64,000 nt of DNA, from positions 194,465-258,464 of the forward strand of contig JBCCHT010000012.1 of assembly GCA_039028615.1 (NCBI GenBank), written 5' to 3'. Source of the stretch: Myxococcota bacterium (GTDB lineage: Bacteria > Myxococcota_A > Polyangia > Nannocystales > Nannocystaceae). Position numbers: made by a program. Shown in pieces: positions 38,101 through 47,100 of this stretch (its first letter is position 1; each line of letters starts with the position of its first letter).

Positions 38101-41100
38101 CCGCCTCGATGGCTTCAACGCCGACGCATCGGGCCGCCCCTACCCCGAGCCCATCGACCTGACCGGCGCCGAGGGCTTCACCTTCACCTGCGGCTTCAAC
38201 AACTGGACCGATCAGCAAGTCGGCTGGGGTATCGGCGACCAAGAGATGTGCGTGATGCTCGGGCTCGCCGATTCGCGCGTGATCATGGACGGCTCGGCGT
38301 ACAACAACGAGATCGTGGGCACCGACGGCGAGATCCTGCTCAACGAGTCCAGCTGTGACGTGCTCGGCCTGCAAAAGAACGCCGCGCAGACCCTGCCCGA
38401 AGACGACGAGCTCACCGCCCCGCTGTACATCCCGCCCTCGGACCCCGGCGACGACGGCTTGCCACCCGTAGACGAGTGCAAGGACACGCCCGCCGACGCC
38501 GCCCCGGCCGGAGAGGCGACGCTCACTCGGCTGCGAGAGACGCTGTTCGTCTCCACCTGCCAGTTCTCCTCGTGTCACTCGGGCGCCAACGCCTCGGCGG
38601 GGCTCGACCTGGCCGCCGACAACCTCCACACCACGCTGCTCGAGCACGAGGTCACGGGGGCGACGAGCCTGCCGCTGATCGCTCCGGGCGACCCCGAAGG
38701 CAGCTGGCTGTATCAGCGGGTGGCGTACTGCAACCCCACCGACGACGCGGGCAACCCGGTGAGCCACATGCCGCTCAACTCGCCCGAGCTGTCCAACCCC
38801 GAGCTGGTGGCCACGCTCCGCGACTGGATCCAGGCCGGCGCTCAGGACAACTGAGCGGCAGCACGCAGGTGACGGCCCGGCTCGCTGGACGAGTCGGGCC
38901 TCACTTTTGGTTCGCGAACTCGATGCAGGACTCCGGCGGGCACGGCCGGTCGTGGCCCGTGTACTCCTGCGCTTCGGTGAGCATCACGTGGGCTCCATCG
39001 GGGCACCGCGCCAGCAGCGTGGGCTTTTCGAGGGTCATGGCACCGATGGTCAGCGGCCCTTCGATGTCGGCCAGCTCCTCGCGGTAGGAGCTCATGTTCA
39101 TGGGGCAGCCCATGGGCCACTGCTCGCGGGGTCGCGGAGTGTACTTGCTGGTGGTGGCCGTGCCGTCGACGGTCACCGTGATGCTCGTGGCCTCGCGGTC
39201 AATCTTCACCGTGACCGCAGGCACGGGCACGGCGTCGGCCTTCGCTTCACTGCCCGCTTCGGCTTTGGCGTCGCCCTTCGCGTTACCGCCCGCCTCGGTC
39301 TTCGTGTCGCCCTCGTCGGGCGGCGGCACCACTGCATACTCACCGCTTCGAAGCTCGGCGTAGTGCGACTCGCACCCGGCGACCACGAACATCACGAACA
39401 TCGACGCGACAAGCCGAGCGGAGTGCATGACTCCACTCTATCAGCCGTACGCCGTCGCTTCGCGCCCCGCGTTCAGACGCAGACCATGGCCTCGCCGAGC
39501 GCCAGGCACTCCATGCCCAGGGGGCAGGTGGCGTCCATCGAGCAGGCCAGCGCGCAGACCTGGGCCCCGGTGGCATCTTCGACGCACGCCGGGGCGGCGG
39601 TGGCCGTGGCTCCCGGGTTGGCGGCGCAGTCACTCGCGGGAGCCTTGCAGCCCGCGCTGGTGCAGAACCCGGTCGACGCGCCACCGACGAGGACGCAGCT
39701 GGTCAGCCCGATGCAATCGGTATTGGTCAAGCACTCGGAGTACATGCCGTCTTCGGGCTGCTCGTCGGCGGGGTCACCCGTCGCACCCCCCGAGGTCTCG
39801 ACGTCACCGGTCGCGACCTGGGTCTCCGAGTCTTCCGGGGCATCGTCGCCCGTCGCTTCGGCGCTGGAGTTCGACCCCATCGAGTCCGGATCGGAGGTGG
39901 GATCGGCGAAGGTCGTGGCAACGTCTTCGGTGTCGACGTTGCAAGCAAAGGACATGGCTCCGGCGACCACGAGCAAACGAAAGCCAAGAAAACGGGCCGG
40001 CATGGGCTGGAGTATGGCGTCAGGTCCGAGACCAGACAAACGCGGCGCACGATGGCTCTACGAGCGGCTCGCGGTGTGATCTGGAGCATGGCCAGGCGCT
40101 CACGGCGTCCGACGGAACGCGATGACCCGACAGACGGCCACCGGTTGCCCGCTCAGCGCTCGAGATGTGACTCGGCCTCGTGAAAGCTCAGCGCCGTTTC
40201 GTACAGTCGCCGCCGCGTGGCCCCACCGACCTCGAGCGAGTCGAGGGCCTGCGGTAGGTCTTGCCAGGCATAGGCATCGAGCTTCGCACCGAACCATGCG
40301 ACCGCCATCGCCCACCCTCGCGTGATTCGATTGTCGGTCAACACCACCGAAGCCGAACGCGCCCGCATCGCCGCGTTCGTGAAGCGTCGGCGTTGGCCGG
40401 CGTCGATCGTGACCGCTCCCACGCTCAAGAGCAGACAGTGCTTGGGCCTGCGCTCCGCGAGCACGTCCAAGTAGCTACGCCAGGTCTGCTCCGGCACGGT
40501 GCCGGGCAGCGTCAGCGAAGCGAGCACCCCATCGACCAAGCGCCAGCGATGAGGCGAGGGCCGACCCCTCTGTTCGAAGCCCCCCGGCTCGTCGGGTTCC
40601 TCATATTCCGCCAGCTCTTGTAAGGGGTTCACTTATCTTCAGATGATACCGGAGAGGGTCGGGTCGGATCGGCCCAATCATGGCCGAAAGAGCATTCAGG
40701 TGGCGCTCGGGTGCCGTTGTGCTCGATTGCGCGAGTCTCGGGCGCTCGACTGCGAACTAGAATGCAACGATTATATATTAATATGAACTACCAATATTTC
40801 ACAGTCATGGTACAGTGCTTCCAGTCGCGTCACGGCACGGTGTTCGCCTTGGTGGGGTGGGCTTCGGTGACGCGATCGTTCTTCTTCGCTGAGTGTCGCC
40901 CCGTCGCGACGTCGTAGCGGTCCGTTATCGGGGGGTAACCCGGGCCCAACGTCGTGACGGGGCGTTGTTTCGTGCGCTCGTCGATCGCACCGCAAAGGCG
41001 TGACACGGTGCGAGGAAACGCGGATCCGTGGGTGATCTACGGCAACGAGGGATGCTGTACATTGCGGACCTCGTATCGCCGTGCCCCGTCATCGCCCTAA

Positions 41101-44100: not shown

Positions 44101-47100
44101 AACATGCAGCCCGACGTGATCGACGCGTTGGTGCAGTGTGGCTACCGCGGCATCGTCATCGCGGGCACGGGCCTGGGGCACGTGAACAAGAAGGTCTATC
44201 CCGCGCTCGAGCGGGCCCGCGACGCGGGCGTGCACGTGTACATGACGCTGCAGACGCTGTGGGGCTTCGTGCAGATGAACGTGTACGAGACCGGCCGCGA
44301 GATCTTGGGGCTGGGCGTGGTGCCGCTGGCCAACATGCTGCCCGAGGTCGCCTACATCAAGCTCGGCTGGGCGCTGGGCCTGCATCCCGACGAGCCGGAC
44401 GAGGTTCGCACGCTCATGACCACCACGCTGGCCGGCGAGATGACCGAGGGCGAGCCCTTCGACGGCTATCTCGTGCTGCAAGGCGGCGTGCCCGAAGCCG
44501 AGCAGCTCATCGGCAAAATCTGGTGGTGATTTGGGCTACGATGGAGCCATGCGTGTTGGGTGGCCCGTCGCTCTTTGCCTCGTGCTCGGCGGCTGCGCGC
44601 GCGAAAACCCCAGCTACGACGCTGGGGCCGTGCCCACGACCACCGACGGCACCCCACCGGTCACCAGCGGCATGGGCAGCGACGGCGTCACCTCGTCTTC
44701 GCCGCCCGTCGACACCCAGAGCCCGCCGGTCTCGGACAGCGGCTCGCTCGATACGGAAGACTCCGGGCCAAACCTGAGCGAGGGCCCCTGCCCCACGTAC
44801 TTCGCCGACTTCGACGAGGACGGATGGGGCAGCGACGCCGATGCGCTCGAGACCTGCGACCCGCCCCAGGGCTATGTCGAGCAGGGCGGCGACTGCGACG
44901 ACGACGACCCGCGCGTGTTCCCGGGGCGGCTTCGATGTGACACCAAGTCGCCCTCGCTGTTCGCGTGGTATCGGCTCGATGGCGACGAAGAGTACGTCGC
45001 CGACGACTCGCACTACGGCAACCCGGCGGCCCCTGGTTCGACCACGCCCGCCCAAGTCATCGACGGGGCGTTCCGCGAGGCGCGGGGCTTCGGCTTCGGC
45101 ACCCGGCTGCTTCGCGTGCACGACATGCTCTCGGCGCTCGGCACCCAGCCGGGCGACGTGCTGCGCCAAGGAACGCTGGCGGCGTGGCTGCGCATCGAGA
45201 ACCCGGCGTTGGCCTGCGCGAGCGAGTTCTGCCTCGTGCCCGCCGTGCACTTCGCCGACGAGTCGGGCAACGGCTTCGGCTTCGAGCCCGAGGTCCACAT
45301 CCACGCCGCCCGCGGCAAGTTCTCCATCGGCTTCGAATGGGAGGGCTGGATCACCACCGCGGGCGAAGGCGCGGGCGCGGGGTGCTGGGCCACCGGTCCC
45401 ACGATCATGTACGACGAGTGGACCCACGTCGCGTTCGTCTGGGACGAGCAAGGCGACGGGAGCACCGAGTGTGCGCTCTTCGTCAACGGTCAGCTCGCCG
45501 GCGACGACTACTCCCCCGCCCCCGTGCTCCGGGAGCCTCTGTGGCGGGCGGGCGGGATCGGAGGCATCGCCAACGACATCAGCGACGTACTGTCGTTCCC
45601 CGGCTCGATCGACGAGGTGATGTTCTTCACCGAGCGCCGCAGCCCCACCGACATCCAGCTCGACTGCGGGCTGGACCGCTGCTTCGAGTAGCGGGCGTCA
45701 GTCGTCATGCAGCGGCGCGAGCCGAGGGTCGGCGGCGATGCGATCGGCGAGGTAGAGCGGACGCGGGCTGCGTTCCATCGCGCGCTGCACCAAGGTCGAG
45801 GCGTCTGCTGGCCGGCCGTCGGCCACCGCGACCGCGGCCATCTCCAGCGCCAGCTCGGTACGAGCGGAGCTGCTCTTCGCGGCCGGCAAGCGCTCGACCA
45901 GGGCCGCAGCCGCCTCCAGATCGTGGCTCGCGGCGTCGAGCCGACGACTGCGCAGATGCACGCGGGCCCGCGCCATCAACAGGTGAAACGACGGATCGAC
46001 CGGGCGCGCGTCATCGACCTCGTGGGGCTCCAGGTCGAAGGGCAGAGCGACGAGCTCGCGCTGAACCCGAGGATCGTCGAGGTGGTGGCGGATCGCGACC
46101 TCCCATGCACGATGCGCCGCTTCGGGAAAGCGCGGGCCGAGGATCGAGCGGAGCAAGGGCCCGTACACCGCTGGGCGGAGCCGCAACAGCGTGGTGAAGG
46201 TCGCCGCGTTGCTCTCGAAATCGATGGCCAGGGCCCGTAACTGCTCGCTCGCTTCATCGAGCCGCCCTCGGTGCACCGCGCTGTGGATCCGCGGCTCGGT
46301 GACGGCCGGGGAGTCGCCCAACCGCGCGAAGATCTCGTCGGCGGCACGATAGTCGGTCTGCGCGAAGGCACGGGCGGCCATTGCCGCGTCCGAAGGCTGC
46401 TCGCCGACGTCACGGACCTGGGCCCCCGACAGCGTGAGTCGGTCGATCCTCACCGCGCCCCAGGCCGCCGCTTCCTGCATCGCTCGGATCTCCAGGCGAT
46501 ACGCCCCCGGCGGCGGATAGTGTGCATGCGGCAGCCGATGCACCGTGTTGGGGGGAATCGGTCCGTCGGGGTCGAAGAGGACGCAGTGACGCTCGTGGAG
46601 CTCGGGGAACAACGAGCCTCGCTGCCGTTGGTGCGCGCTCGCCCCGGGCTCCCGCTCGAGCGGCTCGATGAGCGACACCGGAGGCCGGGGATGCTCGGCG
46701 TCCGTGCCCCACACGTAGCACCGAAGGGTCGTCTCCACCCGATCCGCACCGCCTTGCGATCTCGCGACCATGCTCATGACGGGCGGGCCGCCTCCCTCGG
46801 GGACCAGCCGGACCTCGATCGACGCGCTCCACTCCATCAGCTCGATGTGCCAGTCGAGGTCGAGGGTCAGCAAACCGCCCGCCCAGACCACCGGGATCGA
46901 CGCGATGAGCCCGGGTCGGGCACCAGCGATCTCCAACGAGCCCGATGCGGGGTCACGACGCAGCGCCAGGGGTTGATGCACCTCCAGCGCGTCCGGCAGC
47001 GGCCGGTCCTGGCGAATCTCCACCGTCGCATCACCGCGCGTGACGGCCGAGGTCTGATCGAGCAGACGTGCCACCGAGTCTCGTTGCTCGGGGTCGAGCG

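Follow-up and report, generated by a model that had tools for sequence, protein, structure and literature searches.

An intact gatE-gatD operon in a marine myxobacterium belongs to a multi-phylum bacterial clade and coexists with GlnRS, AsnRS, and GatCAB

At 41081-44529 (+ strand) of the window, the whole 64,000-nucleotide stretch of DNA analyzed here, the genome of a marine myxobacterium has an intact gatE-gatD operon in which every catalytic residue is present. The operon is not special to this genome but is a member of a multi-phylum bacterial GatE clade. The reading we favor, at roughly even confidence, is that this GatDE is an amidotransferase for Glu-tRNA(Gln) that has been retuned to bacterial tRNA, and that it works alongside GlnRS as an optional route, a second one or one for salvage.

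The operon encodes both subunits of an archaeal-type GatDE

The first gene, gatE (41081..43135, +), encodes a kinase/amidation subunit of 684 aa, and the second, gatD (43132..44529, +), a 465-aa protein with a GatD_N domain and type I asparaginase domains (Pfam GatD_N, Asparaginase, and Asparaginase_C). The gatE stop and the gatD start overlap in an ATGA at 43132..43135 (+), pointing to translational coupling. The GatE protein scores 398 bits against TIGR00134 (cut-off 319.55) and slightly misses PRK04028 (439.9 against 456), while GatD clears both TIGR02153 (483, cut-off 324) and PRK04183 (479, cut-off 310). GatB models score far under their cut-off on GatE, and the operon does not have the identity of a GatCAB. 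The top solved structure for both subunits is Pyrococcus abyssi GatDE (PDB ID: 1ZQ1; E 3e-86 for GatE and 5e-116 for GatD), accompanied by that of Methanothermobacter thermautotrophicus (PDB ID: 2D6F), and an AlphaFold model (pLDDT 93) returned 1ZQ1 and 2D6F as its first structural matches. GatE comprises the cradle, an AspRS-like insertion (about residues 330-455), and a helical and YqeY-like tail, preceded by an N-terminal extension of ∼35 residues that is common to the bacterial clade.

Alignment to 2D6F places GatE H51, E199, and E226 at M. thermautotrophicus H15, E157, and E184, which the available text of PMC2330236 gives as Mg ligands. The His is retained in 84/84 archaeal-side and 103/105 bacterial-side rows, and each Glu in 84/84 and 104/105. 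GatD keeps its GTGGT (105-109), HGTDT (183-187), and RKMH (263-266) motifs, which are invariant in 61/61 aligned full-length bacterial GatD proteins, and combines the Thr nucleophile and Thr-Lys-Asp triad of a type I asparaginase with the N-terminal GatD domain. A stand-alone type I asparaginase is ruled out by that domain and by the coupling to gatE; an ordinary asparaginase lies elsewhere in the genome (C45:59191). Profile, structure, and alignment matches therefore agree with the first-pass annotation, which had both subunits matching the archaeal structure full-length with their active-site motifs kept. In subunit length, Mg ligands, asparaginase motifs, insertion, tail, and fold, the bacterial enzyme is the same as the two archaeal ones.

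The DNA itself appears sound. Contigs from run X1, which may be the source run, tile both operon borders with zero mismatch, and an independent study (X2) has pieces of the flanks and a 2.9-kb contig that is ∼90% identical across 41707-44604; the operon is therefore not a chimera. GC3 of the two genes (0.91 and 0.96) is similar to that of housekeeping genes, and nucleotide change relative to the locus of Paraliomyxa miuraensis is mostly at third positions, which we read as purifying selection. Searches for a sigma-70-type promoter or terminator over 40400-46000 and for Rfam matches over 38000-48000 found none, and no RNA run was among the listed sequencing runs that hold the operon. The window neighbors (Mur ligase, LDL-repeat, laminin-G, and kinase proteins) are unrelated and are kept in close kin only.

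GatDE is patchily distributed and accompanies GlnRS or GatCAB

We obtained the same count as the first pass for gatD above cut-off in the family, 6 of 73 genomes, leaving 67 without it. This patchy spread is what functionless archaeal DNA, whether newly acquired, contaminating, or in decay, would give. However, five of the six genus members carry the operon, its GC and GC3 are host-like, the genes look to be under purifying selection, independent contigs back the assembly, and GatE nests deep in the bacterial clade, with 77% identity to P. miuraensis and ∼35% to archaea; we regard such an origin as very improbable. Across an even sample of the phylum, GatD_N occurs in 52/401 genomes. Membership in a multi-phylum bacterial group, claimed at first pass, is borne out by a well-supported bacterial GatE clade, whose members already carry such names in NCBI and JGI, as had also been said. 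In our own set of the 80 closest loci, gatD follows gatE in 68 (the other 12 are truncated by a contig end ≤249 bases past the GatE match) and GlnRS is found in 15, against earlier figures of 73 and 9 for such a set of 80; these did not recur, probably owing to different query patterns.

GlnRS scores above cut-off in 46/50 carriers. In the phylum sample it is present in 47/52 carriers, while four of the other five have GatB and the fifth a split glnS; relative to the background (293/349) this is no enrichment (p 0.30, with kin not independent). GatDE does occur in GlnRS-less genomes (G127, G158, and G170), and two MAGs of unknown completeness (G037 and G049) have neither GlnRS nor GatB, but no well-assembled carrier lacks both, and we found no convincing case among the carriers of GatDE as the sole Gln-tRNA route. 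GatB is absent from 23/51 carriers, AsnRS is present in 50/51, AsnB-family genes (a broad family) in 43/51, and AsnA in three AsnB-less carriers. Glutamine synthetase (PF00120) is encoded by 49/51, and the idea that carriers lack this enzyme was rejected.

The source genome (completeness 96.7%, contamination 1.8%) has GlnRS at C36:101439-103013, not adjoining the operon, AsnRS on C20, and gatA and gatB on C11, which confirms the coexistence of GatDE with GlnRS, AsnRS, and GatCAB noted at first pass. It also encodes a His-type and an archaeal-type AspRS. Redundancy of AsnRS and GatCAB is ordinary in deltaproteobacteria-like cells, according to the available sections of PMC4206432, where GatCAB beside AsnRS and GlnRS gives Bdellovibrio, Deinococcus, and Thermus a second Asn-tRNA route. 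The source genome, with its two AspRSs and GatCAB, shares this arrangement; GatDE is likewise an amidotransferase beside a direct synthetase.

tRNA-Gln's first base pair and the GatE loop that may read it

All three tRNA-Gln genes of the source genome start with U1-A72, as first reported, and U1 is found in 38/38 distinct tRNA-Gln genes from carriers, a count from a pattern search that covers only some tRNA-Gln genes per genome. No A1-U72 tRNA-Gln was detected among the genome's 87 ARAGORN calls, 60 loci, or the 38 carrier genes, and a dedicated A1-U72 tRNA-Gln serving GatDE was rejected on that basis. The features of the archaeal system, namely A1-U72 tRNA-Gln, a conserved Gln240, and a GlnRS-less host with ND-GluRS, are thus not those of the bacterial one, whose host has GlnRS, U1-A72 tRNA-Gln, and a bacterial-type GluRS.

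M. thermautotrophicus Gln240, in the GVQ motif, we take to lie near the tRNA's first base pair and to have a role in reading it. Its counterpart in the window is Cys283, and Gln is found at this position in 80/84 archaeal-side but 2/105 bacterial-side rows. Adjoining the first-pair loop, Thr-Ile is replaced by Ala-Ala in bacterial GatE. The bacterial cradle has many new, clade-specific invariant residues, which could reflect a changed substrate, while the tail drifts. The first pass held that the substrate rule must differ from the archaeal one; the loss of Gln240 lends this support, but "must" is too strong, because our literature search turned up no study in which archaeal GatDE was tried with a U1-A72 tRNA and because A-U and U-A pairs look similar when seen from the minor groove. 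It is from the minor-groove side that GatDE-type enzymes bind tRNA, as the accessible part of PMC2943598 describes.

In the reaction we envisage, GatE would bind glutamylated tRNA-Gln and phosphorylate the Glu side chain with ATP, GatD would release ammonia from Asn or Gln, and GatE would amidate the Glu with that ammonia. Archaeal GatDE, an α2β2 assembly, converts Glu-tRNA(Gln) and not Asp-tRNA(Asn). The available text of PMC2330236 has archaeal GatDE using Asn about as well as Gln. The changed acceptor-stem loop would let GatE accept bacterial U1-A72 tRNA-Gln. GlnRS, or GatCAB where GlnRS is absent, would remain the housekeeping route and GatDE optional: a leaky GluRS may make Glu-tRNA(Gln), which GatDE would convert to Gln-tRNA(Gln), removing mischarged tRNA, and Gln codons could be read with nitrogen drawn from Asn at times when little free Gln is available.

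Neighboring genes and synthetase signatures weigh the possible roles

At 30/80 loci, from several unrelated lineages, glnS or glutamine synthetase lies beside the operon. The former is found at 15/80, 12 of them within 300 bp, and gltX at 7/80; glutamine synthetase directly adjoins at another 15/80 (5 canonical glnA and 10 divergent genes with catalytic motifs), co-oriented and often overlapping. In a GlnRS tree the gatD-adjacent enzymes fall in separate parts and those of the family nest among native family GlnRSs, so the gatD-glnS pairing arose more than once. These neighbors, the insertion domain kept in 105/105 bacterial-side rows, and the conserved catalytic residues support the predicted Glu-tRNA(Gln) activity. 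Against it, no clear supplier of Glu-tRNA(Gln) emerges from the synthetase signatures, no well-assembled carrier has GatDE as its sole route, most family genomes do without gatD, and in the source genome glnS is not adjoining and GatCAB could do the same job.

As to the supplier, an Arg, which we take to mark a discriminating enzyme, with known exceptions, occupies the C36-reading position of GluRS in 45/51 sequences, including that of the source genome, and in 21/22 GatB-less carriers. GlnRS itself might be the glutamylating partner, with GatDE docking on it and repairing or exploiting Glu mischarging at low Gln, much as archaeal GatDE works with ND-GluRS, a GlnRS homolog. The repeated adjacency of glnS fits this, as do the unusual active-site changes of the source-genome GlnRS (HSTCGKEF, Arg260 to Glu) and the docking of archaeal ND-GluRS at the insertion domain (available portion of PMC2943598). 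However, S227/C229, the Gln-specific signature according to the accessible text of PMC3439900, is retained in 59/59 GlnRSs examined, which led us to reject the linked GlnRS as a Glu-specific variant; two genomes without gatD (G103 and G104) share the odd GlnRS type, and GatDE is present in GlnRS-less ones. We rate this partnership a distinctly unlikely one. Complex prediction for P. miuraensis GatE (residues 36-480) with its adjacent GlnRS gave no answer in either direction (score 0.00).

We also considered the same chemistry in another role: acting on another Glu-charged tRNA or carrier, or a Glu-tRNA-gated hydrolysis of Asn or Gln that feeds the neighboring glutamine synthetase in nitrogen handling. 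That GatDE never replaces GlnRS or GatCAB, that the GluRS signature is of the discriminating type, and that conservation is higher for GatD (64-86%) than for the tail of GatE would all suit such a role, as would the invariant cradle residues, the drifting tail, and the co-oriented glutamine synthetase genes. On the other side, 60 loci scanned for tRNAs beside the operon gave only Ser, Glu, Pro, and Val calls, with no dedicated or odd tRNA, the tail is retained in 101/105 rows, and linkage to glnS and gltX fits tRNA-Gln. We consider a role of this kind rather unlikely, yet the least so of the alternatives.

Finally, GatDE might be an Asp-tRNA(Asn) or dual Asp/Glu amidotransferase that makes Asn on tRNA instead of GatCAB. 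Bacterial tRNA-Asn can also start with U1-A72 (1/2 genes in the source genome), many carriers lack GatB, and five of these have a possibly non-discriminating AspRS, of His type in G026, G034, and G040 and in G042 and G048 the archaeal-type aspartate-tRNA(Asn) ligase only. The AspRS residue, which we take to mark a non-discriminating enzyme when it is His, is nonetheless Leu in 17/20 GatB-less carriers and His in 19/26 GatB carriers; judged by this residue, the putative non-discriminating signature tracks GatB, not GatDE. AsnRS, AsnB, and AsnA are as widespread as described above, and G041, G043, and G047 combine GatDE with AsnA, AsnRS, and a Leu-type AspRS and lack GatB, and therefore have no Asn need for GatDE. 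Neither aspS nor asnS is among the named recurrent neighbor families, and the universally kept insertion domain, in archaeal GatE, favors GluRS-family partners and blocks ND-AspRS (PMC2943598, available portion). An Asn-making role thus seems improbable to us, and the Glu-tRNA(Gln) amidotransferase remains our preferred reading.

Relation to archaeal GatDE and evolution

Reviews up to 2022 treat GatDE, in their available text, as confined to archaea and build arguments on LUCA and on the absence of GlnRS upon it (PMC8762117, PMC9499178, and PMC2811023), and a 2014 survey (PMC4206432), in its accessible sections, knows of no bacterium in which the two routes to Gln-tRNA coexist. Our literature search, with subscription papers mostly outside its scope, found no paper on bacterial GatDE; an earlier mention is possible in Lewis et al. 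2024 (IUBMB Life 76:505) or Sheppard and Soll 2008 (J Mol Biol 377:831), and the NCBI and JGI labels of these proteins in bacteria, which predate this analysis, temper its novelty. A large bacterial clade always beside another route opens the retention of indirect pathways to direct experiment, for which there is a carrier in culture, P. miuraensis, whose gatE-gatD-glnS genes form a single run (locus L006). Unlike archaeal GatDE, the bacterial form has lost Gln240, carries the N-terminal extension and distinct cradle motifs, and is dispensable and, by gene order, co-transcribed.

In a rooted tree a GatE from Heimdallarchaeota (P0160; support 96/83) comes out as the sister of the bacterial GatE clade, a tie that bears on early cross-domain transfer; an AU test did not reject archaeal monophyly with a LUCA-age split (p 0.33). 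Tentatively, and with more doubt than for the activity itself, we suggest that many bacterial phyla owe their GatDE to Heimdallarchaeia-like Asgard archaea through an ancient transfer, or else keep it as a relic of LUCA age, and that its acceptor-stem loop was retuned to U1-A72 tRNA-Gln, so that it now serves as an asparagine-fueled second route beside GlnRS, coupled to glutamine supply genes. If so, the two Gln-tRNA routes would for the first time be shown side by side in bacteria, GatDE would no longer be an archaeal signature, and its coevolution with tRNA-Gln could not be the bar to GlnRS in archaea. The Asgard-type GatEs (Heimdallarchaeota P0160, Hodarchaeales P0235, and Thorarchaeota P0181) have cradle motifs in common with the bacterial clade but, unlike it, retain the Gln of GVQ/GIQ. 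A 70% relative of P0160 sits among archaeal ribosomal protein genes, and at one Asgard locus (L264) gatD and gatE lie head-to-head, whereas the bacterial clade has them in one operon.

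A GatDE operon resident in the myxobacterial genome

The window corresponds to contig C12, 194465–258464, of a genome with 12.3 Mb and 68% GC. It encodes gatE at window positions 41081–43135 (684 aa; TIGR00134 score of 398 bits against a cut-off of 319.55, and PRK04028 score of 439.9, slightly below the cut-off of 456) and gatD at 43132–44529 (465 aa; above the cut-off for both GatD models, with GatD_N found). The two ORFs share an ATGA overlap and together occupy 41081–44529. In a sequence search, the top solved-structure matches for both subunits are the GatDE enzymes of P. 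abyssi (1ZQ1) and M. thermautotrophicus (2D6F), and a structure search with an AlphaFold model (pLDDT 93) ranks the same two first, with GatB after them. Model scores, structural matches, predicted fold and overlap corroborate the first-pass annotation, which had described the operon as intact. GC3 values of 0.91 (gatE) and 0.96 (gatD) are similar to those of housekeeping genes, and changes relative to the gatE-gatD-glnS locus of Paraliomyxa miuraensis fall mainly at third codon positions. Contigs of sequencing run X1, possibly the source of the assembly, tile both operon borders, and a related strain from an independent study covers 41707–44604. The nearest named GatE relatives are myxobacterial (P. 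miuraensis at 77%, and Nannocystaceae MAGs). The operon is genuine, resident in the host genome and under selection, and the locus is an ordinary member of its clade; that GatDE is non-functional is scarcely credible.

A 450-bp intergenic stretch (40633–41080) with an AT-rich patch at about 40760–40810 separates gatE from a divergent 159-aa ORF; neither a sigma-70 consensus nor an Rfam match was found in it. At 45698–50521 (-) lies the gene for a typical myxobacterial signaling protein, a Ser/Thr kinase of 1607 aa that carries FG-GAP and TPR repeats.

Distribution and phylogeny of bacterial GatDE

A GTDB scan returned 548 stretches encoding GatE relatives, of which the best 80 were analyzed as loci. 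Record titles of these best 80 are bacterial or unassigned and include Myxococcota, Gemmatimonadota, Planctomycetota, Acidobacteriota, Eisenbacteria, Krumholzibacteriota, Cloacimonadota, Ignavibacteria, Fermentibacterota, KSB1 and Zixibacteria, in agreement with the multi-phylum bacterial group proposed at first pass. gatD lies downstream of gatE in 68 of the best 80 loci, the remaining 12 stopping at contig ends. Within the family, gatD is above the cut-off in 6 of 73 genomes, reproducing the earlier count (five of the six genomes of the genus, plus G059), and of 401 genomes sampled evenly across the phylum, 52 have GatD_N. Many proteins of the bacterial clade already bear the GatE label at NCBI and JGI; a literature search, incomplete in coverage, found no paper on bacterial GatDE.

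A FastTree of 189 GatE rows (the window, 67 of the 80 loci and 121 of 150 representatives, with short or frameshifted rows excluded) has a 99% branch separating 105 rows from 84. Every titled or named row on the 105-row side is bacterial (3 of 17 representatives looked up carry an organism name), and all six named rows on the 84-row side are archaeal, few representatives on either side carrying names. In an IQ-TREE mixture-model tree (47 rows, 329 columns, with five bacterial GatB sequences as outgroup), the bacterial clade is supported at 100/98, its sister is the Heimdallarchaeota row P0160 (96/83), the other archaea receive 100/99 and the root is placed among Asgard-like rows. A 70% relative of P0160 is surrounded by archaeal uS13, uS4 and uS11 genes and is therefore not a misbinned bacterium. 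We favor an ancient transfer from Asgard-like archaea as the origin of bacterial GatE. However, constraining all archaeal-side rows together costs only 5.7 log units (p-AU 0.33), and the outgroup sits on a long branch and contains bacteria alone, so a LUCA-age split is also compatible with the data. Phyla are non-monophyletic within the bacterial clade of the FastTree and the family pattern is patchy, which suggests that GatDE spread later among bacteria.

Residues that probably read the first base pair

An enzyme that textbooks confine to archaea has a large clade in bacteria, where its tRNA-reading residues are altered. GatD motifs are unchanged in 61 of 61 aligned sequences, and the bacterial-side GatE rows have the insertion domain (105/105) and the tail (101/105). 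Gln240 of 2D6F, in the archaeal GVQ motif and reportedly in contact with A1-U72 in the 2006 structure paper, aligns with Cys283 of the window GatE; this Gln is present in 80 of 84 archaeal-side versus 2 of 105 bacterial-side rows. The Mg ligands of GatE given in PMC2330236 (His15, Glu157 and Glu184) correspond to H51, E199 and E226 here and are near-invariant in archaeal-side and bacterial-side rows. PMC2811023 describes a GatB 3-10 turn that reads the first pair; just past the corresponding GatE loop, Thr-Ile is mostly Ala-Ala on the bacterial side.

The source genome has U1-A72 in all three tRNA-Gln genes, as first reported, and G1-C72 in both tRNA-Glu genes; a pattern search of GatDE carriers recovered 38 distinct tRNA-Gln genes, each beginning with U1. 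Because Gln240 and Thr-Ile are replaced and U1 is uniform, the first-pair rule of bacterial GatDE has likely changed. The first-pass annotation had held that the substrate rule must differ; the lost Gln240 and the 38 U1 genes lend weight to a difference without making it necessary. In the literature searched, no study had assayed the archaeal enzyme on a U1-A72 tRNA.

GatDE beside established routes to Gln-tRNA

The source genome encodes a single-copy GlnRS, AsnRS, gatA and gatB, so the coexistence noted at first pass holds. It also encodes one GluRS, one GluQRS, glutamine synthetases (GS), two AsnB-family genes, a bacterial AspRS and an archaeal-type aspartate-tRNA(Asn) ligase (contig C23, 145593–146852; above the TIGR00458 cut-off), the last being the sole AspRS type in carriers G042 and G048. 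The set of GlnRS, AsnRS and GatCAB has precedents, GatCAB there being used for Asn (PMC4206432); the unusual component here is the additional GatDE.

GatDE appears never to be the sole route of a cell. GlnRS is above the cut-off in 46 of 50 carriers, a count that covers the genomes of 50 of the 80 loci, and in the phylum sample it occurs in 47 of 52 carriers versus 293 of 349 non-carriers (p 0.30), the five carriers without it having GatB (four) or a split glnS (one). Carriers G127, G158 and G170 lack GlnRS, and each has two GluRS genes and GatB. Glutamine synthetase is present in 49 of 51 genomes and hence is not missing from carriers. The GluRS position reading C36 is Arg in 45 of 51 sequences, which we take to be a mark, though an unreliable one, of discriminating enzymes. 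GlnRS S227/C229, the Gln-specific signature (PMC3439900), are retained in 59 of 59, so neither enzyme is an evident source of Glu-tRNA(Gln); that GlnRS is the glutamylating partner of GatDE is very unlikely.

We propose that bacterial GatDE is a putative Glu-tRNA(Gln) amidotransferase that would act on U1-A72 tRNA as an optional second or salvage route to Gln-tRNA(Gln), a reading to which we give an even chance. A low-level salvage or nitrogen-stress role would fit. Asn might also be usable as donor, as the archaeal enzyme accepts it (PMC2330236). Use outside bulk translation, with GatDE serving another carrier or a nitrogen-handling role, also fits the apparent lack of sole-route genomes, the discriminating-type GluRS mark and the retained GlnRS residues; we consider it unlikely.

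Gene neighborhoods point to glutamine as the amino acid of bacterial GatDE. Among the best 80 of the 548 loci, 15 contain glnS (in 12 of them no more than 300 bp away) and 7 contain gltX. Another 15 have a directly adjacent, co-oriented GS gene, so that 30 have glnS or adjacent GS; these include close kin yet span several unrelated lineages. The adjacent GS genes are 5 canonical, upstream glnA in Phycisphaerae and 10 divergent, downstream genes that retain catalytic motifs (L016:13416–14864, and in L020, L040, L046, L050, L053, L055, L056, L061 and L065). gatD-adjacent GlnRSs are scattered over the GlnRS tree and, in this family, nested among native ones; glnS follows gatD in G096, G098, G099 and G059, but not in the source genome.

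The divergent GS family is about 30% identical to GlnA and keeps its catalytic motifs, scoring 135–155 bits on TIGR00653; it often overlaps the gatD stop and is the top PF00120 match in G009, G011 and G035. Directly after gatD, L009 has a PtuA-like ATPase (7583–8899; retron Ec78-type defense family, below cut-off) in the place of glnS in relatives, and L082, from a KSB1 MAG, has a degraded asnA fragment (6165–6413) with two stops at the contig end.

Asparagine as a possible alternative product

Among 51 genomes, the 50 carriers plus the source genome, GatB is above the cut-off in 26; counting two copies that are broken or partial brings this to 28. The AspRS motif residue, presumably a marker in which His denotes a non-discriminating enzyme, is Leu in 17 of 20 GatB-less and His in 19 of 26 GatB genomes (frameshifted G029 omitted; kin not independent). 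An Asp or dual amidotransferase would suit five GatB-less carriers with a possibly non-discriminating AspRS (G026, G034, G040, G042 and G048), but the Leu/His distribution argues against it, as do G041, G043 and G047, which keep GatDE despite AsnA, AsnRS and a Leu-type AspRS, without GatB; we regard it as quite unlikely. Besides an intact asnS, the Cloacimonadota MAG G044 has a second match to this gene that contains 7 in-frame TGA codons (C137:1655–2935), which suggests a contaminating contig reading TGA as an amino acid.

Divergent GlnRS and extra tRNA arrays

The GlnRS of the source genome (contig C36, 101439–103013, equivalent to L001:1480–3219 (-)) is of a divergent type (583 bits, where kin reach about 700; 52% against the family type) that is also the only GlnRS in G100, G103 and G104, and it looks like a replacement by transfer. 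HSTCGKEF replaces HSLCTLEF and Glu occupies the position of E. coli Arg260, which may reverse a charge in the ATP site. Divergent extra tRNA arrays (C3:258280–258723, C23:6428–7170, C27:171191–172216, C43:29499–37639 and C9:257702–257854) include four tRNA-Ser, tRNA-Tyr, a G1-C72 tRNA-Asn and the third tRNA-Gln and resemble mobile tRNA arrays; tRNA-Sec is also present, on C10.
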